Assembly (NCBI GenBank): GCA_044356215.1
Contig: JBIKWQ010000070.1
Location: 1-17,896, forward strand
Direction: 5' to 3'
DNA from: Bdellovibrionota bacterium
GTDB taxonomy: Bacteria > Bdellovibrionota_C > UBA2361 > OMII01
Length of the DNA stretch: 17,896 nt
Shown: one piece after another, positions 363-17,767 of the stretch
How the letters are laid out: every line of letters starts with the position of its first letter
Position numbering within the stretch: position 1 is the first letter of the stretch
Translations under genes and position numbers: made by a program
Notes under the pieces: model-generated
The model's input: only the letters and a program-made list of their open reading frames with translations
Database searches by the model: none
What the model was told of the DNA's origin: nothing

Positions 363-617
363 AGGGAAGGCCGGCAAAACCTACCCGTAGCGAGAAAGTG
401 GAGGTTGAGTTGATATTCGATTTTCGAGATGGGAAAAAACCGCACCGGACTGCGCCAAGGCTACGTCCGGTCCTACATTATCTCGCCGGCCGTAGCTTTA
501 GCGAAGGTCGGAAGTGTATCCGCTGTGATACATTGAGGATTTTTTTCCATCTCGAAAACTCGAAGAGCGGCTCAAGATCCGCTTTCGCAGTAGGGAGGGG
601 TTTTGCCGGCCTTCCCT
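363..617. mobile_element. Fold-back MITE copy 1, carrying a nested 68-nt insertion
   Basis: Perfect 19-bp terminal inverted repeat AGGGAAGGCCGGCAAAACC (363-381/599-617) and an internal inverted repeat TTTTCGAGATGG(G)AAAAAA (421-439 vs 541-558). A near-identical inverted copy lies at 14145-14329. Confidence 0.9.
445..512. repeat. REP doublet inserted inside MITE copy 1
   Basis: 68 nt absent from copy 2, which reads AACCGCAAGTGTATCC across the site (boundary ambiguous by 1 nt). Contains the hairpins ACCGGAC..GTCCGGT (444-471) and CCGGCCGTAGCTTTAGCGAAGGTCGG (486-511), related to 10505-10534 and 10565-10600. Confidence 0.85.
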
Positions 618-5931: not shown

Positions 5932-6489
5932 CTACTTAGCTCGAGATACGTACTCATCAGTTCGAGTATCGATCTCAATCTTCTCACCGATTTCTATAAA
6001 GGCTGGGATAGAGATCTCATGCCCTGTAGCGAGCTTTCCAAGCTTCATCACTTTACCTGATGTGTCACCCTTTACCGCTGGCTCTGTGTAAACGATCTCG
6101 CGAATGATCTTAGTTGGCAGCTCAATTGAAAGTGGATTGCCCTCGTAGAAAACGATCTCGCATTCCATGTCATCTTCGAGGTATTTCAGCGTGTCCTCGA
6201 GGAACTCAGCCGAGATCTCGTACTGATTGAAATCGCCATCCATAAATACGTAATTATCTCCATCTTTGTAGGAGTATTTCACCTTGGCACGATCAAGGAT
6301 TATCTCCTCAAACTTATCGTCGGTCTTATAGATACCCTCTGAGGCGCCGCCAGTGATGAGATTCTTAAACTTGTACTTCATCACGGAAGCGTTTCTGCCT
6401 GACTTGCTGAACTCTGCTTTAGTGATAAGAGTCGGATTGCCTTTGAGCATTATTACTGCTCCGGCTCGTAGGTCTTGTGCATTTTTCAT
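5932..6489 (-). CDS. efp: Elongation factor P, arginine (rhamnosylated) type
   Basis: Loop KSGRNAS with Arg at the modified position, YTEPAVKGDT, IDTRTDEYVSRA; 185 aa. Confidence 0.97.
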   Translation of the reverse strand: MKNAQDLRAGAVIMLKGNPTLITKAEFSKSGRNASVMKYKFKNLITGGASEGIYKTDDKFEEIILDRAKVKYSYKDGDNYVFMDGDFNQYEISAEFLEDTLKYLEDDMECEIVFYEGNPLSIELPTKIIREIVYTEPAVKGDTSGKVMKLGKLATGHEISIPAFIEIGEKIEIDTRTDEYVSRAK

Positions 6490-6589
6490 CGGTACACCTT
6501 AATCTTGCTAAACGTAAATCTACTGTTATTGCTTACGCATGCCATAAGCAACTCGGACTAAACACTCTGGAAGCGCTATGCTGCCGCGA

Positions 6590-7717
6590 CTACTCACGAC
6601 GTAAAAACGCCACCAATTTGGAGACGAGGTCGCCGTGAGCTGCTAGTTGATCCGCGAAAGACCGAGCCTCAGGCGCTAAATTTGTGACTAGCGCGCACAG
6701 GTCAATCTTTTCAGTACCACCTTCATTCCACAAAACGAGTAATTTCTCAAGTGAGGCAAAGCCAGGCAAAGCGATGTTGTCCTTGTAGATAGCTAGAAAT
6801 GCTCGTAATTTTCGCAAGTGAGCTTCTTTCTCCTGAGGATAAATATTCCAAATAAAAGGGCGTCCCGCCCAAATAGCGCGGACAAAAGAGTCTTCACCTC
6901 GAACAAAATTCAACGAGCAGGTCCAAAGCAGTCGGTCAAAGTCCGGTTGCGACAAGAAGGTAAGTTTGTAGATCGGCACCTCGGGGGCTATCGCTGAAAT
7001 GATCCTTTCCGTCTCCGGCGGGACTCCCTCCGTCAGAAAGACTCGAATTGGCTGATTACACTGTGCGAGACTCTCTGCCAACAGAGAGATGGGGGCTGTT
7101 GGATAGCAGAAAAGGGAGACGTCGATAAAATCAGCGGCGATTGCCGGGAGCGAGTGCACTTGTCGCCACAAGTTCTGCTGCGTAAGGTTGAACTGAAAGG
7201 CGTCTCGTTGTTTTAGAAGGTCGGCTTCTCGTAACAGTCCGCCTGTATCTGGTGTAAAGCCTGGGAAGAAAAGTGTGCGATCGAGCCCTGTCTGAGGTTC
7301 AGGAGATGGAATCGCGTGAAACCGTGGAACCCATGCTTCAGCGCTCAGATACTCAAGGTCGACCCAACGTGTATTCGCATCTTTCATCAGCTCCATGACA
7401 AACGTGGGTAGCGAGCAGCCAAAAGTTTCTACAACTACGTCGGCTGGCTTACCGTAAGTAGTCGGCAATAACTCCCCGCTCCAGGAGAGGAACGTAATAT
7501 CACCTCGGATCTGACTCGGCAGCGCGGGGTCTAATGTTGGAACAAATTTTTTTACTATGTCTAGCCTGTCAACAATAAGTCGAACAGCGAAACCTCTTTC
7601 ATGCGCGAGTTGACAAGCGAACCGATAGGCGACCCCTATGTCACCAAAATTATCGACTACTTTGCAAAAGATATCAAAAATCGGTTTATCAGGGAGAGAT
7701 GTGTATTGTTCGACCAT
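6590..7717 (-). CDS. earP: EF-P arginine rhamnosyltransferase
   Basis: DIFCKVVDNFGDIGV, LEYLSAEAWV, FFPGFTPDTGGLLRE, NFVRGEDSFVRA and WNIYPQ motifs; immediately upstream of Arg-type efp. Confidence 0.96.
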   Translation of the reverse strand: MVEQYTSLPDKPIFDIFCKVVDNFGDIGVAYRFACQLAHERGFAVRLIVDRLDIVKKFVPTLDPALPSQIRGDITFLSWSGELLPTTYGKPADVVVETFGCSLPTFVMELMKDANTRWVDLEYLSAEAWVPRFHAIPSPEPQTGLDRTLFFPGFTPDTGGLLREADLLKQRDAFQFNLTQQNLWRQVHSLPAIAADFIDVSLFCYPTAPISLLAESLAQCNQPIRVFLTEGVPPETERIISAIAPEVPIYKLTFLSQPDFDRLLWTCSLNFVRGEDSFVRAIWAGRPFIWNIYPQEKEAHLRKLRAFLAIYKDNIALPGFASLEKLLVLWNEGGTEKIDLCALVTNLAPEARSFADQLAAHGDLVSKLVAFLRRE

Positions 7718-8567: not shown

Positions 8568-8694
8568 ATGGCGATATGCAATAGTCCGTGCGAGCAAAAC
8601 TGGCAGGGCTTTTGGCGTAGATCACTAGAGCGTTCTCCAAAAGCCGGGATTTCGATACGGACTTTTGGAAAACGCTATATCAGCCGCAAGCAAT

Positions 8695-10152
8695 ATGAAC
8701 ACCCTATTCATTAAGCCCAATATTAACAGAGCTAAGCTTGCACTAACTACAACGGCAGCAATTGCGCTTCTAACGGGGTGCTTTAGCTCTAATTCTGATA
8801 CAGTGAATCTAAACTCTGCTAAGAATTCTGCCCCTCGTAATATCATTGTTGTCATCGGGGACGGAATGGGCCCACAACAAATTGCACTAGCTGAGCTTTA
8901 TCATGCCCGTGTGGGTGGCCGCGCAGCTGACGCTCTAAACCGATTTATCACCAGTGCTGCGCAAGGCACACACCTTCCACTCCCGGAAACCGCGCTTGTA
9001 AACGACTCGGCCTGCGCCGCTAGTCAACTGGCTGGTGGATGCCGCTGCGATCCACAGGGTATCGGTCTAGATCGTTGGGGCAGGCCCTGCAATACGATAT
9101 CAAAACGCTCGCAGCGGCTCGGCATGCGCGTGGGACTAGTCTCCGACACACGCCTAAGCCATGCCACTCCTGCAGGATTCGCTGCGCAAGTTAAACACCG
9201 CGACCAAGAATACGAGATTGCGGCTCAGATGGTGGGTAGTGAATTTGACCTACTCCTCTCTGGTGGAAGCGAGTACTTCCCGCCGCCGTTACTAAAACAA
9301 GCTGCCGACAAAGGCTACCGCATTGTGTCAGATCGCAAGCAACTTAACGACACAGAGAGTCTACCTGTTTTAGGTCTCTTTGCTAAAGGGTACATGTCCG
9401 ACGCCTTTAGCGAAGGTACCAACGGAGAGCCAACTCTGGTGGATATGACTGATAAAGCGCTAAAGCTACTGGATAATCCTCGTGGTTTCTTTCTAATGAT
9501 CGAAGCCGGTCAGATTGACACAGCTGCTCATCATAATGATGCCGGTTGGGTGTTACGTGAGATGTTTAGACTCAGCAAAGTCTTAGAGCGCGTGCTTGAG
9601 TTCTCCGCTAAGCGTGATGACACATTAGTGATCCTAACAGGCGATCACGAAACCGGCGGCCTAGGCCTCAGCTATCGAACGATCGCGGACCAAAACATCT
9701 CAAACACCCACGATTTTCTCACCAAGCAGACCCTGCTCGGTTTGGCTAGACAGAGCGCTCCGCTCCGAACCCACCTTGAAACATACGCTGACGATAACTA
9801 CGGCTCCCTAAAGAAAGAGATCTCCCGCCTAGGTATTGAACCACTTAGCGCTGATGAACTACGAGAAATCACAACATCAAGCAGGTTAACCACACACCCT
9901 AGCGCCGGTGATGATGGCCACCCAGGTGAATTATCCTTTGAGACTAATCGATTTTATCCACACCAAAAGTATCGCACCCCTGCACTACTCGGGCGAGAGA
10001 TAGGCGCACGCATGGGGGTGGTGTGGGCTACCGGCGGGCATACATCAACACCGGTGCCAATCCTGTGTCAGGGGGCAGGACAGGAGATCTGTAGGGGTTG
10101 GTTTACAACGCAGAGCTTCGGTGAGCGGCTGATTGAATTGTCGGAAGAGTAG
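8695..10152 (+). CDS. phoA: Alkaline phosphatase (PhoA family), probable lipoprotein
   Basis: IGDGMG, DSA nucleophile motif, HATPA, EAGQIDTAAHHND, TGDHETGG, GGHT; lipobox LLTGC. ATG 8695 preferred over TTG 8665. Confidence 0.9.
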   Translation: MNTLFIKPNINRAKLALTTTAAIALLTGCFSSNSDTVNLNSAKNSAPRNIIVVIGDGMGPQQIALAELYHARVGGRAADALNRFITSAAQGTHLPLPETALVNDSACAASQLAGGCRCDPQGIGLDRWGRPCNTISKRSQRLGMRVGLVSDTRLSHATPAGFAAQVKHRDQEYEIAAQMVGSEFDLLLSGGSEYFPPPLLKQAADKGYRIVSDRKQLNDTESLPVLGLFAKGYMSDAFSEGTNGEPTLVDMTDKALKLLDNPRGFFLMIEAGQIDTAAHHNDAGWVLREMFRLSKVLERVLEFSAKRDDTLVILTGDHETGGLGLSYRTIADQNISNTHDFLTKQTLLGLARQSAPLRTHLETYADDNYGSLKKEISRLGIEPLSADELREITTSSRLTTHPSAGDDGHPGELSFETNRFYPHQKYRTPALLGREIGARMGVVWATGGHTSTPVPILCQGAGQEICRGWFTTQSFGERLIELSEE

Positions 10153-10470
10153 ATATGCTTCCGAACACGAGTCATTCCTCAGGACTCCAGTGGCTAAGCA
10201 GAGCGGCGAGGGACGAGCTAGGTTGCGAGAAGTATCATTTTACCTACACTTCACGGGCTCCGTCTCTGTGGAAGCGGAATCTAGAAGTCATCAGGTGCGG
10301 GCTCAAAGGAGTCGTAAGAGGGGAGTTCGTCGATAGCTTAGGACGCATCGATGAACTTGGGGATCGGTGGAGGTTCTCTAAAGTCAGCGATTCCGTGAGA
10401 TTTCATGATGTCTTTTATGGAGTGCTCGTCTTGAATAAAGGCGATGATACGCATCTGAGCATGGCATTTG

Positions 10471-10497
10471 CCCTCGACCTGAGCTCGGGCCGAAGGT
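10471..10497. repeat. 27-nt palindromic REP-like insertion
   Basis: CCCTCGACCTGAGCTCGGGCCGAAGGT is an imperfect palindrome centred on GAGCTC. It splits the CPKC codons (boundary ambiguous by 1 nt). Confidence 0.8.
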
Positions 10498-10504
10498 GGG
10501 CACT

Positions 10505-10534
10505 TCCACCTTTGCTAAAGCTACGGCGGACAAG
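10505..10534. repeat. 30-nt REP-like insertion
   Basis: TCCACCTTTGCTAAAGCTACGGCGGACAAG: hairpin plus CAAG tail. Splits the GAG (Glu) codon of PLEC. Confidence 0.85.
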
Positions 10535-10564
10535 CAAGCGGGGCAATCTCGTAGATTCGCCTTA

Positions 10565-10600
10565 CTTGTCCGCCGTAGTTCCCACAGGGACGAAGGCGGA
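10565..10600. repeat. 36-nt REP-like insertion, inverted relative to 10505-10534
   Basis: CTTGTCCGCCGTAGTTCCCACAGGGACGAAGGCGGA. Splits the ATA (Ile) codon of WAACIRR. Confidence 0.85.
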
Positions 10601-10811
10601 TGCACGCGGCCCAACTGCTCTTTGAGAACTCGCGTCTGTAGTCGCTCTCTTGCATTTCAGGTGGAGAAGGGGAGAGTTTAGCTCGCTCGCCTCGACGTCT
10701 ACAGGAGTACCTTCCATCTGCCTTGTGCATGAGCTCCTACTCCGTCGAAGGTCCCCGATACAGTTCGTTGAAAATCTCGCGGATGGTAAAGAGCGGAGCA
10801 GTTTATGAGAT

Positions 10812-11666
10812 TCAGCGAACTCGGGCAGCTAGAAGCTCTTTAACTTCGGAGTACTTCCGTCTGCTTACTGGTAAACTCTTGCCGTTTGAGAGAAGGCACT
10901 CTGTCGCTCCATTTCGCTTTGAAAGTTTTGTCACATGCTCCATCGATACCCAGTGAGATCTGTGAATTTGAATCCCTAAACTGGCTGGAAGCTCGTCAAT
11001 CGCGTCCTTTAGATTGTATAGAAACATTACCTCAGAGTCTGTGGTGGTTACCCTAAGATAATGAAGCTCAGAGCTAATTGAGATTATGTCCCCTGAAGCC
11101 CGCATTGTTAACTCCTGAATAAATCGGCCGGTTTGATCAGTAGTTATAGCGGGACATTGGTCACTATGATCTTGGGGCAGGGGGTGAGTCGTACGGCGCT
11201 CCTTAGAGAAATCCAATTGAAGAATCCAGGGAGCGTTGAGAGCTAACCAGGTGATTGTAACGGGCACCACCACTCCTGAGGCTTCATCCAATAACCCAGC
11301 TATAATTCCGCCTCCTGCAGTGTCGTCGGGAATCCCGAACAGAAGGTCAAGCGAAAACGCGAGCGGCACAAAGAGCGAGGCCGCCACCACTCCACCTATC
11401 GCTGTTTGTATCCAAGGGGAGTTGACGCTCCTAAAGTTAGAGTAACGTGATATAAAATGCTGCGTCGCGATCAGTAGAGGGATCAGGATCGAGATCTGAA
11501 TAGTCCAGAAAACCAGTCCTCTTCCGAATCCTAGCCCAGCAGCTCCTGCTGGCTCCATCCACGCGAAAACTATAATCAGCGCGATAGAGCTGAATATAAA
11601 GTATTTCTCAACAGATACGGTTGTTGAGTCAAGCCAATTTGCTGTCTGATTTCGAGCCCCGCTCAT
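10812..11666 (-). CDS. Membrane-anchored LytTR-family transcriptional regulator
   Basis: About four N-terminal TM helices, then SSELHYLRVTT, GIQIHRSHWV and LSNGKSLPVSRR of the LytTR domain. ATG 11666 preferred over GTG 11702. Confidence 0.88.
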   Translation of the reverse strand: MSGARNQTANWLDSTTVSVEKYFIFSSIALIIVFAWMEPAGAAGLGFGRGLVFWTIQISILIPLLIATQHFISRYSNFRSVNSPWIQTAIGGVVAASLFVPLAFSLDLLFGIPDDTAGGGIIAGLLDEASGVVVPVTITWLALNAPWILQLDFSKERRTTHPLPQDHSDQCPAITTDQTGRFIQELTMRASGDIISISSELHYLRVTTTDSEVMFLYNLKDAIDELPASLGIQIHRSHWVSMEHVTKLSKRNGATECLLSNGKSLPVSRRKYSEVKELLAARVR

Positions 11667-11748
11667 TTCCACAGAATACCACCGATGGAAATAGTTTGCC
11701 ACTCGTGCATTTCAATGACCGCTGATGCATCAACTGATTGTTCATAAT
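11659..11748 (+). promoter_or_regulatory. Four direct repeats at 20-bp period (putative LytTR operator) followed by a -10-like CATAAT
   Basis: CCGCTCATTTCC (11659), CCACCGATGGAA (11679), CCACTCGTGCAT (11699), CCGCTGATGCAT (11719); CATAAT at 11743-11748. Confidence 0.7.
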
Positions 11749-13623: not shown

Positions 13624-14144
13624 GTGGATTCCAAACTTAAGCTAAATGTCTTTTGGAAAGCTATAGAGGCGGTTGTCACGATGGCTGCCTCGTTCCTTCA
13701 GCTCGCATTCATCGCGCGGTTGTATCCGTCCACTTTTGTCGGACAGTATCAATTAGCTCTAGCGTGGCTCTTTCTCGTCACTGCTTTCGCGTGCTTCGGA
13801 GGGATTGTTATGGTCGCGACGAGAGAGCTCTCTGGTAGTAACGACCCCAACGATGCTAAATCAATTTTCTCTAATGCCCTGACGCTTCAAATAATGATAG
13901 GCGTGCCAGTGTGCGTTATTTGCGTCTTTGTTTTCCGCTACTCGCCATGTTTTACCGATCTCGCCATGCCACTGAGCATCGGTACTGTGGCGTTGGTAGG
14001 ATCTATGATTCTGCAGATGTCTCAAGCTCTTCTGATTAGTCAGGAGAAGATCTCTAGCGTTGTAGTAGCGTCAATTGTCGGCCATCTATTCGCCACCGTA
14101 GCGACGATCGTCGCCGCTTTTCAAAATCTCTCAATCGTTACCTT
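13624..14144 (+). pseudogene. 5' fragment of a Wzx-like polysaccharide flippase (MOP superfamily), truncated by MITE copy 2
   Basis: KLNVFW..FIARLYPSTFVGQYQLALAW..FGGIVMVATRELS is the typical flippase N-terminus. Only ~174 codons precede MITE-derived sequence. Confidence 0.8.
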
Positions 14145-14329
14145 GGGAAGGCCGGCAAAGCCCCTCCCTACTGCGAAAGCGGATCTTGAGCCGCTCTTCG
14201 AGTTTTCGAGATGGAAAAAAATCCTCAATGTATCGCAGTGGATACACTTGCGGTTTTTTCCCATCTCGAAAATCGAATATCAACTCAACCTCCACTTTCT
14301 CGCTACGGGTAGGTTTTGCCGGCCTTCCT
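14145..14329. mobile_element. Fold-back MITE copy 2 (uninterrupted, inverted relative to copy 1)
   Basis: GGGAAGGCCGGCAAAG...TTTTGCCGGCCTTCC. Reverse complement of 364-616 without the 68-nt insert, differing by only a few substitutions. Confidence 0.9.
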
Positions 14330-14616
14330 TAGGAAGGAGCTGTGATTTTAATGTGGAATCTGATCAAGTTTTTCGTGGTACAAAGTCACGTGAGGCAGCG
14401 AGCCCGCTCGCAGCCCGCCTGTCGACTTGAGCCGCCTACTCCCACCCGCACATCTGCTCCCATACGCCTCAATAATCATGCGAGATCTCTAGCTGACACA
14501 CGCCTTGAATCTCTGAGTCTAGCCGCGCGACTTGGCCTGGGTGATTGGCACTCATTAACTCTCTGTTGTTAGCATCAAGCTCTCAATGCTCTGCCTATTC
14601 TCAGTTAAGATTTGCC

Positions 14617-14661
14617 TTCACAGATAAATATATTTCATGTAAACTAGTTTTCATGAAAACT
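14617..14661 (+). promoter_or_regulatory. TA operon promoter and palindromic operator
   Basis: TTCACA (14617-14622), 17 bp, TAAACT (14640-14645). Perfect palindrome AGTTTTCATGAAAACT (14646-14661) and a related TTTCATGTAAACT (14633-14645). Confidence 0.72.
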
Positions 14662-14877
14662 TTAAAACTATCCTTTGATCTATCAGACGAACCTGAATTA
14701 GTAGAGCTTTTGCGTATGGAATCTGCTCACCGCAAGCTGTCTCAGAAAGGAATTCTTGTTACTGCTTTAAAGGCGTATTTTGCAGACCGGATGGAGAGCC
14801 ATATGCTTTTAAAGGTCGCGGAGAAAACATTTGCTGAATGGAACAGCGATGCGGATAAGGCATATGACGATCTTTGA
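14653..14877 (+). CDS. Putative antitoxin (RHH-like N-terminus, acidic C-terminus)
   Basis: 74 aa MKTLKLSFDL...EWNSDADKAYDDL. Overlaps the toxin start by 14 nt; the operator covers the ATG. Confidence 0.75.
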   Translation: MKTLKLSFDLSDEPELVELLRMESAHRKLSQKGILVTALKAYFADRMESHMLLKVAEKTFAEWNSDADKAYDDL

Positions 14878-15205
14878 TATTATTTACGTCCCGTTTCCTT
14901 TTACCGACTTATCCTCCGCGAAGAGGCGCCCGTGCATTATTATTGGGAGTTACAAACCAAAATCGTTCAATCAGCACCTTATCGTCGCTATGATTACAAG
15001 TAAGGTATCGACTATAAAGTTTCCACACGATATTGAAATTGAAGATCTAAAAGGGGCGGGATTATCAACGAGCTCTGTTATCAGACTTTCAAAGATCGTT
15101 ACGATTGATTCGGGTATCGTAATAAAGAAATTGGGGCGGCTGGCCAAATCTGAACAGACCAGATTGAAGAGAGAGTTTGCTAAGCTTTTTGAGGAGGTTG
15201 TTTAG
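14864..15205 (+). CDS. PemK/MazF-family endoribonuclease toxin
   Basis: DIIYVPFPFTDLSSAKRRPCIII, AMITS, GLSTSSVIRLSKIVTID...LGRL. Start at ATG 14864. Confidence 0.9.
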   Translation: MTIFDIIYVPFPFTDLSSAKRRPCIIIGSYKPKSFNQHLIVAMITSKVSTIKFPHDIEIEDLKGAGLSTSSVIRLSKIVTIDSGIVIKKLGRLAKSEQTRLKREFAKLFEEVV

Positions 15206-15850: not shown

Positions 15851-17767
15851 TCATTTGATAATATCACTATCTCCCTCACCCCCAGCCAATCCGCGGGCCG
15901 ATCTAAATCGCTTTAAATAGATCGATAACAACGACACCGTACTAGGCGTCATCCCTGGGATCCGGGTTACCTGCCCCAAAGAAGCCGGGCGGTGTTTACG
16001 GAGCTTCTCGCGCGCTTCGGTTCTTAATTGCTTTATCTCCTCGTATGGAAAATCAGCGGGGATCGGTTCGTCCTCAATCTTCTTAAGCCTCCGCACCTCA
16101 TCTTCTTGGCGATCTAAGTAACCACTGAATTTGGTCTCGATCTCAAGAGCAGCGCGTAACTCCTCTGATAGCTCCTGCTCCTCATACGGGCAGTGCTCTA
16201 AGATATCGCTTAAATTTAACTGTGGGCGCTTTAGTAACTGAGATAGCGAGACGCTATCTTTAAGAGCCGCTGTACCTTTACTCTCAAGCCACTGATTAGT
16301 TAACGCGTTAGGCTTTACCCTGGTTTTCGCAAGCCACGTTAACGCGCCATCATAGGCCGCTTGGCGCTGCTCAAATCTCTCTATCTGCGCATCACTTAGT
16401 AGCCCTAGCTCTTTCGCTAGAGGACAGAGGCGATTTGTCGCGTTATCCTCGCGCAATATAAGTCTGTACTCAGCCCTTGAGGTGAACATCCGATAAGGCT
16501 CATCAACTCCTGTCGATGTTAGATCATCTGTCATCACTCCGATATATCCCTGACCTCGGGTGATTACTAAAGGCTCGCGATCTAAAACCCTGTGCGCGGC
16601 GTTTACTCCCGCGATCAAGCCCTGCGCCGCGGCCTCCTCGTAGCCACTTGTTCCATTTATCTGCCCAGCGAGAAAGAGTCCGTCGATGTCCTTTGTCTCG
16701 TAGGTAGGCGCTAGATGCCTAGGATCAACGAAATCGTACTCAACCGCGTATCCAGGGGCTAAAAACTCGACTCGCTCTAGGCCAGCGATTGATCTGACAA
16801 AGAGCTCCTGCGCGTCGATCGGCAGAGATGTCGAGATCCCATTTGGATAAACGATATCTGACTCAAAACCCTCGGGCTCAAGAAACACAGTGTGTGAAGC
16901 CTTGTCCGCGAATCGAAAAACTTTATCCTCAATTGATGGACAGTAGCGCGGGCCGCCGGATTTTATCTGCCCGTTAAACATAGGGCTTCTTTCGCGATTC
17001 GTGCGAATGATGTCGTGCGCTCGCTCATTTGTAGCTGTCATCCAGCACGATATCTGCGGCCGATCAATCTTCTCGGTCATAAAGGAAAAGGGTTGCACCG
17101 GATTATCACCGGGCTGCTCTACTAGCTTAGAGAAATCGATCGTCGATCTTCTAAGCCTAGGGGGAGTTCCTGTTTTTAACCTACCAAGTGGAAACCCAAG
17201 TGATCGCAGAGAATCGCTTAGTGAATTAGAGGCCCGGTCGCCTAGACGCCCACCCTCTGTTTGGCGCTCTCCTGAATGCATCAACCCTTTTAGAAATGTT
17301 CCAGTTGTCATAACAACTGAGGTAGCTGGTATAAAACTTCCATCAGCTAGAACAACACCGATGACCTCTCTTCCACGGGTCTCGATCGACGCAACCTCTC
17401 CCTCTACTACTTTTAGATTCTTAACCTGCGCTAAATAACTCTGGACCCAGTTCTTATACAGATCGCGATCAGCTTGAGCGCGAGAGGCTCGCGCCGCAGC
17501 ACCACGGCTTGTGTTTAAGATCCTAAATTGAATTCCTGTGGCATCGATCGCTTGGCCCATTAAACCACCTAGCGCGTCTAGCTCCTTAACTAGGTGCCCC
17601 TTCCCCACTCCACCTATTGCTGGATTGCAGGACATCTGTCCGATTCCATCCCGACGCAACGAGACTAGAACCGTTGAAACCCCCAAACGGGCTGACGCAT
17701 AGGCAGCCTCGATACCGGCATGACCACCACCCACAACCACCGTTTGTTTTATTTGAGCAGGGCTCAT
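15851..17767 (-). CDS. mnmG: tRNA uridine-5-carboxymethylaminomethyl(34) synthesis enzyme MnmG (GidA)
   Basis: VVGGGHAGIEAA, MSCNPAIGG, RLKTGTPPR, GPRYCPSIEDK, AGQINGTSGYEEAAAQG, EPYRMFTSRAEYRL. Confidence 0.98.
   Translation of the reverse strand: MSPAQIKQTVVVGGGHAGIEAAYASARLGVSTVLVSLRRDGIGQMSCNPAIGGVGKGHLVKELDALGGLMGQAIDATGIQFRILNTSRGAAARASRAQADRDLYKNWVQSYLAQVKNLKVVEGEVASIETRGREVIGVVLADGSFIPATSVVMTTGTFLKGLMHSGERQTEGGRLGDRASNSLSDSLRSLGFPLGRLKTGTPPRLRRSTIDFSKLVEQPGDNPVQPFSFMTEKIDRPQISCWMTATNERAHDIIRTNRERSPMFNGQIKSGGPRYCPSIEDKVFRFADKASHTVFLEPEGFESDIVYPNGISTSLPIDAQELFVRSIAGLERVEFLAPGYAVEYDFVDPRHLAPTYETKDIDGLFLAGQINGTSGYEEAAAQGLIAGVNAAHRVLDREPLVITRGQGYIGVMTDDLTSTGVDEPYRMFTSRAEYRLILREDNATNRLCPLAKELGLLSDAQIERFEQRQAAYDGALTWLAKTRVKPNALTNQWLESKGTAALKDSVSLSQLLKRPQLNLSDILEHCPYEEQELSEELRAALEIETKFSGYLDRQEDEVRRLKKIEDEPIPADFPYEEIKQLRTEAREKLRKHRPASLGQVTRIPGMTPSTVSLLSIYLKRFRSARGLAGGEGDSDIIK

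Follow-up and report, generated by a model that had tools for sequence, protein, structure and literature searches.

The C-terminal remnant of an IS91-family transposase gene, lying on the minus strand at positions 10281-10722 of a 17,896-nucleotide (nt) contig from a Bdellovibrionota bacterium (GenBank assembly GCA_044356215.1, contig JBIKWQ010000070.1), is interrupted by three small palindromes of 36, 30 and 27 nt, which we call E36, E30 and E27. The explanation that we favor, at a probability of roughly 0.6, is that this dead fragment was invaded at least three separate times by tiny non-autonomous hairpins of two families, most likely acted upon by an HUH-type enzyme supplied in trans. The contig, hereafter the window, is the entire contig C54 of a 3.24-Mb genome in 131 contigs. 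Below, G000 denotes the genome of the window and other G numbers the genomes of its relatives, while C, L and P numbers denote contigs, loci and homologue proteins, respectively.

The inserts are defined by what is left when they are taken out. Removal in silico of 10565-10600, 10505-10534 and 10471-10497 yields a single minus-strand frame (...SSWAACIRRIYEIAPLECPKCHAQMRIIAFIQDEHSIKDIMKSHGIADFREPPPIPKFIDAS*), as had been claimed in an earlier note made from the letters of this DNA alone, and the restored frame agrees with a paralogue in the same genome and with 109 of the 120 homologues listed. A tblastn search of the genome with the reconstructed peptide, a check which that note had proposed, recovered this paralogue uninterrupted on C24 and C3; it reads ...SSWVACIKRIYEIDPLEC (C24:7019-7189) and PKCKAQMRIIAFIQDEHS... 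(C24:2-115 and C3:29392-29279), contains no additional bases and is 82% and 92% identical to the relic in amino acids. Alignment of the relic to the paralogue at the DNA level sets all three boundaries to the nucleotide, with E36 alone shiftable by 1 nt owing to a shared T. Both the sequence itself and this alignment reveal no target duplication at any of the three sites, and the inserts therefore lack the mark of DDE-type MITEs (miniature transposable elements bounded by inverted repeats); they display the precise, duplication-free insertion of the IS200/IS605 type. Uninterrupted copies in other genomes have 36-37 nt where the window has 129 nt. Among the 120 listed homologues the motif is strictly contiguous in 107 and contiguous with substitutions in another 2, while 8 are truncated or frameshifted at the motif and 3 carry inserts at the same sites (an in-frame translation of E27 in P0052; a 22-amino-acid insert at the E30 site in P0011 and P0025). 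The 14 homologues that were aligned all lack the three segments. This IS91 family was found in 23 of 24 other genomes of the genus.

E36 (10565-10600, minus strand) lies between ..GTGCA and TAAGG.. and reads TCCGCC / TTCG-TCCCTGTGGGA-ACTAC / GGCGGA / CAAG. Beyond it are 30 nt of original transposase coding DNA (10535-10564, minus strand; RRIYEIAPLE) that form the spacer to E30 (10505-10534), which lies in the opposite orientation and reads TCCACC / TTTGCTAAAGCTAC / GGCGGA / CAAG on the plus strand, with one A.C mismatch in its arm, the same loop as the hairpins of a MITE of this genome, and two stop codons introduced into the frame. The two share the layout TCC(G/A)CC - TT(C/T)G..CTAC - GGCGGA - CAAG; the description in the earlier note of two related elements running from TCC(G/A)CC to GGCGGACAAG, inverted about 30 nt of host DNA, can be read directly in the sequence. 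Seven further nucleotides of original coding DNA (10498-10504, minus strand; AGTGCCC, part of E-C-P) separate E30 from E27 (10471-10497), an imperfect palindrome of the second family that reads ACCTTCGGCCCGAGCTCAGGTCGAGGG on the minus strand and splits the CPKC motif.

The host is classed as an IS91-family relic through its homology to the paralogue, which matches both the IS91 zinc-binding domain (Zn_Tnp_IS91, PF14319, 8.7e-19) and Y2_Tnp (PF04986, 1.9e-9) and is itself frameshifted on C24/C3; the relic pieces have no direct Pfam match and lie beyond the Pfam models. What survives of the gene (10281-10722, minus strand) is the C-terminal part of a Y2 HUH transposase, truncated at its 5' side, where homology to full copies begins near 10717-10722, and closed by its original stop codon (TAG, 10283-10281). 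A premature in-frame stop (10338-10340, minus strand), TAA in place of a Glu of the homologues, is a further sign that the gene is dead. Downstream, part of the non-coding region 3' of the transposase stop is retained (10190-10280, minus strand), but the conserved right end of the family (..GCGATCGAT..CCTATCCTT) is missing, and the relic is therefore truncated on this side too. With these losses at the 5' side of the gene and at the right end, it is no intact element with oriIS and terIS ends. It is flanked by an alkaline-phosphatase-like gene (8665-10152, plus strand) and a LytTR regulator gene (10812-11702, minus strand).

Truncation is common among other copies of this transposase. Breakpoints cluster at hairpin sites: the E27 site, between GAGTGCC and CCCCAAATGC, is the exact end point of contigs C24 and C3, a relic at C67:131 begins at the E27 site, and L025 (G018:C81) consists of only ~75 nt of IS91 DNA between E36 and the E27 site. 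The relatives' IS91 copies (L008-L018, L047, L073) are mostly 5'-truncated, with the C-terminal part and right end kept and with start residues at 286-378, six of them at 331/332. Such 5'-truncated copies would fit premature termination of a rolling-circle transfer that starts from the right end.

The hairpins of the first family are best described on the opposite strand, as CTTG/CCTG - arm - GTAG - inner hairpin - (C)GAA - arm, that is, a GTAG-[variable inner hairpin]-GAA core inside a covarying 6-bp outer stem with a CTTG/CCTG tail (CAAG/CAGG). The inner hairpins are diverse (GC-TTTA-GC, GCC-TT-GGC, GCGC.., CTCC-GAAG-GGAG, TTCCC-ACA-GGGAC). With their 6-bp arms and inner hairpin, E36 and E30 are imperfect palindromes in the 20-40-nt size range of repetitive extragenic palindromes (REPs). 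A strict structural scan (at least 5 of 6 arm positions paired, T[TA][CT]G..CTAC, tail C[AG][AG]G) returned 44 such hairpins in the genome, as compared with 0-2 in each of 10 shuffles; 33 reside in MITE copies and 11 outside them, the latter including E36, E30, a tandem array on C20 and one hairpin adjoining a tRNA gene on C41. The palindromes were expected from the earlier note to be multicopy, which holds at the level of the family but not for the exact pieces: by blastn-short, E36, E30 and E27 are each single-copy in the genome, and only a 20-nt core of E30 repeats, in ~40 MITE copies. Across 32 distinct family-1 elements, arm position 4 is paired in 24 (G-C in 10, C-G in 10, A-T in 3, T-A in 1), figures that are indicative only, as the set was chosen for at least 5 paired positions, partly via a pattern that fixes the arms, and includes copies related by descent. 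GTAG is conserved in 32 of 32, as the filter required, and is located between the outer and inner stems, where it is terminal relative to the inner hairpin, which is also its place in GTAG-1.

The second family is typified by a GAGCTC-centred palindrome. E27 corresponds to a 51-nt palindrome minus 24 inner bases, and the 51-nt form occupies the same site in G018:C28 and G024:C53. Palindromes of the GACCTGAGCTC type, which had been thought multicopy, are not so as such, E27 being this 24-nt-deleted form. The 15-bp stem of the family, GACTTCGGCGAGCTC, is also found within some MITE copies of the genome and in another repeat.

Related IS91 copies display the inserts in separate states of occupancy. 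Most carry no insert at all. E36 is found alone in G018:C81 (93% identical, with the same unusual inner hairpin), an E30-type hairpin alone in G021:C158 and G015:C37, and E27 alone, as the identical 27 nt, in G021:C88; E36 and E30 occur together without E27 in G021:C117 and in four G002 copies. Given these single-occupancy states, the REP-like doublet arose as two singlets that came to flank 30 nt of host DNA, as the earlier note had supposed: copies with only E36 and copies with only an E30-type hairpin both exist, and the spacer is transposase coding DNA. For the same reasons, the behavior expected of a REPIN (a REP doublet forming one hairpin), in which doublet and spacer move as a unit, was not found. 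Together with the paralogue alignment, the separate occupancy also upholds the broader claim of three insertions, without target duplication and of two families, in an IS91-family relic. All four combinations of E36 and E27 occur, which on the face of these sequences would require recombination between copies, precise loss or repeated gain; recombination between copies is seen in the window relic itself, which is a mosaic.

To place insertions across the gene, IS91 copies were aligned to the uninterrupted copy in G023:C244, and positions given here are nucleotides of that open reading frame (ORF). Family-1 hairpins occupy at least 11 sites in this 1.3-kb gene (~197, 258, 329, 741, 796, 880, 1072, 1102, 1124, 1135, 1199 and 1236) and family-2 hairpins another five (~214, 562, 1040, 1109 and 1185). 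They stand in both orientations and measure 27-51 nt; at homologous sites the inserts are 31, 34, 35 and 37 nt long, and selection for in-frame inserts was rejected since those of the relatives are not multiples of three. The sister copies of G002 are especially informative. Four share an E36-like insert (E36'), a 13-nt frameshifting deletion and an E30-like insert (E30'), but they part at position 1135, which is empty in C14 and C51 and occupied by two distinct elements in C250 (34 nt) and C15 (31 nt), and at position 1124, which is filled in C15 only. These differences reflect recent, separate hits by single units, twice at one nucleotide. The G002 occupant of position 1072 has the tail of E36 and a compensated arm (TCCTCC/GGAGGA) around an inner part that cannot be aligned to that of E36. 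The full-length copy in G002:C15 carries seven hairpins, and when its inserts are removed by script the first in-frame stop comes at codon 389. A G035 copy, from another genus and with 39% protein identity, has a hairpin at the corresponding point, M-R-I^.

A third kind of small insert, of 22-24 nt (e.g., TGGTTCGACAAGCTCACCACAG and TTTTGAACCACTTGTGGTGAGCAA), was noted in the same transposase gene at ORF nt ~19, 701, 1246, 1271 and 1278 (L068, L026, L050, L079 and L024). Nested or duplicated family-1 hairpins were also observed at L040, L049 and L051 (G035:C3) and at L055 (G047:C5), with one unit lying within the loop of another in the example ..TTCGC[TTCCTCC TTCGCTAAAGCTTC AGCGGGA CAAG]AAAGCTAC...

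The distribution of the family extends well beyond the window. The motif CTACGGNGGACARG occurs in 42 of the 91 genomes of the order, at 0-69 hits per genome (69 in G041, 15 in G047, 11 each in G002 and G074, and 7 in G032), with 0-1 per genome for a reversed control. When one locus was sampled per genome, 7 of 15 in the taxonomic family of the window lay in IS91 genes (six by tblastn and one by flank reading) and 0 of 14 in other families of the order, some matches in this sample having no hairpin and looking like chance. All listed hits in three genomes of the genus place 4 of 22 in IS91 genes. A variant pattern places 10 of 13 there, three other genera included; this pattern has an extra R and misses the window's own copies, and its 13 hits serve for context. 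Outside IS91, most copies occupy either loops of larger palindromes or other repeats present in many copies. The earlier note's surmise of a bias towards mobile DNA thus holds, and the preference for single-stranded DNA that it raised may underlie this bias. As for the target, 12 of 32 elements have CA and 10 of 32 have CT immediately 5' of the TCCNCC arm, compared with ~4 expected by chance, on the strand reading TCCNCC...CARG; no longer motif was found there.

Under the explanation that we favor, each piece entered singly, precisely and without target duplication, usually landing just 3' of CA or CT on the strand that reads TCCNCC...CARG. The reaction was most likely a single-strand cut-and-join of the HUH type, supplied in trans either by 'peel and paste', as in IS200/IS605 and REP-associated tyrosine transposases (RAYTs), or by the IS91 enzyme itself. 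Later, gene conversion from a paralogue would have rewritten part of the relic as far as the edge of E36. Upstream of E36 (10601-10717), the relic is 98% identical to the C24 paralogue (115/117), while in the region 10359-10564 identity is 72% in the 30-nt spacer and 87% downstream of E27; this pattern suggests a conversion tract that stopped at the insert.

Several points weigh against this account. Hitch-hiking on transposing IS91 copies inflates the IS91 share of the hits, and the covariation and flank counts come from selected, partly kin-related elements. The GTAG lies inside the outer stem, unlike the free-end GTAG of described REPs. Folded as isolated DNA strands, E30 (z +0.57) and E27 (z -0.64) do no better than shuffles; E36 has a z of -1.95, and the doublet folds as one long hairpin (z -6.6). 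Nor does the locus give signs of present activity. In contigs of four lake metagenome studies the triple allele is identical, the differences numbering 0, 0, 0 and 1 across 203-705 nt, and none of these contigs lacks a single insert at the locus, although contigs drop rare variants. Contig joints that skip 10470-10600 come from uninterrupted paralogues, and one X6 contig holds an E27-type copy without E30. The E36 lineage is common to other species at 93-96% identity. With E36 shared by descent with copies in other species and the allele fixed, the insertions are old. The earlier suggestion that the units are mobile in this genome thus finds no support: the pieces are unique here, their E36 lineage is shared, the triple allele is fixed and no excision variants appear in contigs.

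The search for a candidate enzyme adds further difficulties. The genome has five Y1_Tnp-like loci, namely one RAYT-like gene on C53, three copies of a 335-amino-acid type and one 315-amino-acid type. PF01797 was searched in five hairpin-rich genomes, and 30 Y1_Tnp loci in six genomes were scanned for hairpins within ~1.5 kb; a family-1 hairpin lay near only 1 of the 30, which leaves the proposed link to RAYT or other Y1 genes without backing. The RAYT-like HUH gene (C53:13046-13720, minus strand) is preceded by five 96-nt tandem repeats (13744-14150), each with GC-rich hairpins ending ..GGTCCGGGTAGG; C53, whose flanking repeat is a different one, accordingly does not show the arrangement of a REPtron, in which REPs of one family lie around a RAYT gene. 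The C53 protein was not found in G041, G047 or G032, which have 69, 15 and 7 motif hits, and a PF04986 search of five genomes gave no Y2_Tnp match in G047 or G032.

Some further observations concern these genes in their own right. Single units related to the C53 96-nt repeat are found on C10, C15 and C100. The ~335-amino-acid gene, with a weak Y1_Tnp match (C37, C9, C60), is preceded by GTAGCCGGGCTAC hairpin arrays, in which the perfect hairpin GTAGCC(G/C)GGCTAC recurs in tandem 27-nt units; arrays are also present on C80 and C35 (G000 coordinates C60:16182-16895, C37:~34500-35800, C9:44549-45800, C80:~46590-46800 and C35:456-4843). Similar genes of 325-357 amino acids occur in all five of the other genomes checked, and gene and arrays together look like an undescribed element of the IS200/IS605 superfamily.

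An alternative that we judge unlikely would make the hairpins miniature derivatives or by-products of IS91 rolling-circle transposition, cut and joined by the IS91 Y2 transposase: a palindrome beside a CTTG/CTCG-type tetranucleotide would mimic an IS91 end, and the enzyme would act in cis on its own single-stranded intermediate, which would bring the hairpins into IS91 DNA. Much about the setting speaks for it. The hairpin tails are CTTG, CCTG or CTCG, and excerpts of PMC13181058 describe the IS91 family as leaving no duplications, using 5'-CTTG/GTTC targets and cutting terIS at 5'-CTCG or GTTC beside a subterminal palindrome. At the E30 site, the four host nucleotides before the element are CTTG, CTCG or CTGG; many hits fall in IS91 genes, in three other genera as well (the 10/13, 7/15 and 4/22 above), and relic truncation points and contig breaks fall at hairpin sites. 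However, G047 has 15 hits in a 97% complete genome and G032 has 7 in a 95% complete one, neither with a Y2_Tnp match, such that the hairpins show no dependence on the IS91 enzyme there; G041, with 69 hits, has one Y2_Tnp fragment. No resemblance to the hairpins is seen in the ends of this IS91 family, whose right end is ..GCGATCGAT..CCTATCCTT and whose left end, close to the start codon, has ..CCGAAC..; nor did a comparison of IS91 ends and hairpins show a CTTG/GTTC consensus beside the right end. All IS91 targets retain a T at position 2 (PMC13181058), which the tail CCTG does not have, and host flanks at the other sites are not CTTG-like.

Rather more improbable is that the hairpin itself is immobile, a few ancient insertions having been inherited, amplified and shuffled by IS91 transposition and recombination, with the observed states as recombinants and decay products. 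Consistent with this, the E36 lineage is shared between species at 93-96% identity, the four G002 copies with E36', the deletion and E30' indicate that hairpin-laden copies have multiplied, the window relic is a mosaic with its junction at E36, the four E36/E27 combinations need recombination or homoplasy, and the allele is fixed in four studies. But at least 11 sites in a 1.3-kb gene need at least 11 insertion events, and the G002 sisters differ in presence and absence and hold two different elements at one nucleotide. Moreover, occupants of positions 1072 and 1135 have inner hairpins that cannot be aligned, and the same hairpin family is found in unrelated repeats, beside tRNA genes and in other families of the order.

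We give very little credence to the view that the hairpins are selected functional RNA or DNA structures, such as mRNA stabilizers, terminators, transposase silencers or elements cut out of transcripts so as to let transposase production continue. Compensatory changes do maintain the outer stem, several inner hairpins have a TTCG loop on the TTCG..CTAC strand, a T-run follows the second MITE hairpin, the G002:C15 copy stripped of its seven inserts runs to codon 389 before a stop, and REPs have been reported as RNA elements (PMC3733652, excerpts). Against these stand the occurrence of both orientations within one gene, lengths of 27-51 nt that are often not multiples of three, the two stops that E30 puts in frame, the 13-nt frameshifting deletion that the G002 copies also carry, and the lack of any Rfam family matching the window's hairpins. 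Hardly credible at all is local origin by replication errors (template switching or snap-back synthesis at palindromes), which would suit three palindromic, duplication-free pieces within 130 bp and the difference between E27 and its 51-nt form, an internal deletion of the kind palindromes suffer, but not a core, arms and tail that recur at unrelated loci and in 42 of 91 genomes, nor inserts of which none derives from flanking host DNA.

How the mobile hairpins of our favored explanation relate to known systems is best seen against the GTAG-type REPs. In the excerpted text of Di Nocera et al. (2013; PMC3733652), these are built from a GTAG, a stem-loop and, on its far side, a conserved motif of 3 nt, with coexisting loop types whose ends are GC/GC or GGC/GCC. 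The present hairpins resemble GTAG-1 and GTAG-3 REPs in all of these respects, as well as in being 20-40-nt palindromes with complementary stem changes, and like them occur as singletons, inverted dimers and arrays that are sometimes intragenic, even at about the same site in homologous genes. They differ in that an additional outer stem of 6 bp surrounds the core and a 4-nt tail, CTTG/CCTG, follows it, in their low copy number (11 outside MITEs) with most copies nested in mobile or repeated DNA, and in that no RAYT gene flanked by family-1 hairpins was found among the 30 Y1_Tnp loci of six genomes. The term 'Bdellovibrio' did not turn up in a term search of the available text of PMC3733652. 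The TnpAREP of E. coli needs single strands and cuts between C and T (PMC3333891, in part), whereas the boundaries mapped here lie elsewhere, outside the outer stem. On this comparison of sequences the hairpins would be REP-type elements that differ in build (outer stem and tail) and live in unusual places, within IS91 genes, MITEs and palindromes of larger size.

As of 2021, how REPs spread was still described as open (PMC8266576, excerpts). On the current view, as far as the summaries of Bertels and Rainey go, inverted doublets (REPINs) are the mobile unit and single REPs are remnants. Two inverted units plus a spacer fold into one long hairpin in REPINs, as do E36, the 30 nt and E30 (doublet z -6.6), but here the spacer is host coding DNA and each half stands alone in related copies. 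IS200/IS605 elements and their miniature derivatives share with the hairpins the lack of terminal inverted repeats and of target duplication as well as precise boundaries, and their hairpin recognition and insertion 3' of a short specific sequence may have counterparts here (PMC3333891, in part); they have, however, one hairpin at the left end and another at the right, and guide sequences read their target of four or five nucleotides, while here the whole element is one 27-37-nt hairpin with a CA/CT preference only. Regarding the IS91 family (IS91, IS801, IS1294), to which the host gene belongs, the tails resemble its target and cleavage tetranucleotides, in the partial descriptions at hand, and neither duplicates the target, but the hairpins are not IS91 ends and occur in genomes without detectable IS91 transposase. 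Rickettsia palindromic elements (RPEs; cited in PMC3733652, seen in excerpt) are likewise small palindromes in ORFs, and the three pieces here are multiples of three, with P0052 annotated with E27 in frame; in contrast to RPEs, which are in-frame and stop-free, no in-frame rule holds here (31, 34, 35 and 37 nt at the same sites), E30 brings stops and the host gene is dead. Four other kinds of feature (attC sites, group II intron targets, inteins and CRISPR repeats) were also weighed and dropped for want of a matching feature.

Elsewhere in the window, a ~145-nt MITE copy (418-562, minus strand) has terminal inverted repeats (CGAGTTTTCGAGATGGGAAAAAA) and contains two inverted family-1-type hairpins: the first at 482-511 (CCGACC TTCGCTAAAGCTAC GGCCGG CGAG) and a second with the loop GTAGCCTTGGCG, followed by a T-run. 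The genome has ~40 copies of this MITE, many at contig ends. Some include, and others lack, a 48-nt family-2 hairpin (stem GACTTCGGCGAGCTC) inside a small GTATCACAGTGGATAC palindrome, and the hairpin is found in another repeat as well (G000 locations C48:~6108, C109:~4557, C89:~12467, C52:15781, C53:23551 and C96:17250, with C18 and C58 partial). MITE copies with and without this hairpin constitute a second set of natural empty sites.

The window has other features as well. An EF-P gene lies beside the rhamnosyltransferase gene EarP (Pfam 1.8e-114) at 5932-7717 (minus strand), an ordinary conserved pair. At 14545-15205 (plus strand), a MazF/PemK-like toxin gene (14831-15205) overlaps an upstream ORF of 110 amino acids that has no Pfam match and is likely the antitoxin. 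At E<=1, an Rfam search of the whole window gave no match at the relic hairpins; its 12 weak matches, of the microRNA type, lie at 42-211, 14173-14300 and 17302-17357 and score far under the gathering cutoffs. Two long hairpin-forming stretches, 114-211 and 14173-14300, have such far-subthreshold matches on both strands and are probably further palindromic repeats.

The value of this system lies in its host. A conserved, multicopy gene provides natural empty sites at single-nucleotide resolution for many events, so that boundaries, the lack of duplication, the CA/CT flank preference and the birth of doublets from singlets can be read from genomes, and the IS91 empty sites supply defined oligonucleotide substrates for candidate HUH enzymes. 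Small hairpins can, moreover, be among the main ways in which the IS91 elements of a single bacterial order decay. We would go further only tentatively, and with more doubt than belief: each 27-37-nt hairpin may be a whole transposable unit, one of the smallest known, that relies on an HUH enzyme encoded elsewhere and homes to a few exact nucleotides in the genes of rolling-circle (IS91) transposases and to the loops of larger palindromes, places where DNA is often single-stranded; there the hairpins would progressively inactivate IS91 copies and give rise to doublets from singlets. If this is true, the hairpins would either parasitize a parasite or serve the host as a brake on IS91, and REPIN-like doublets would arise from singlets, the reverse of the accepted order.

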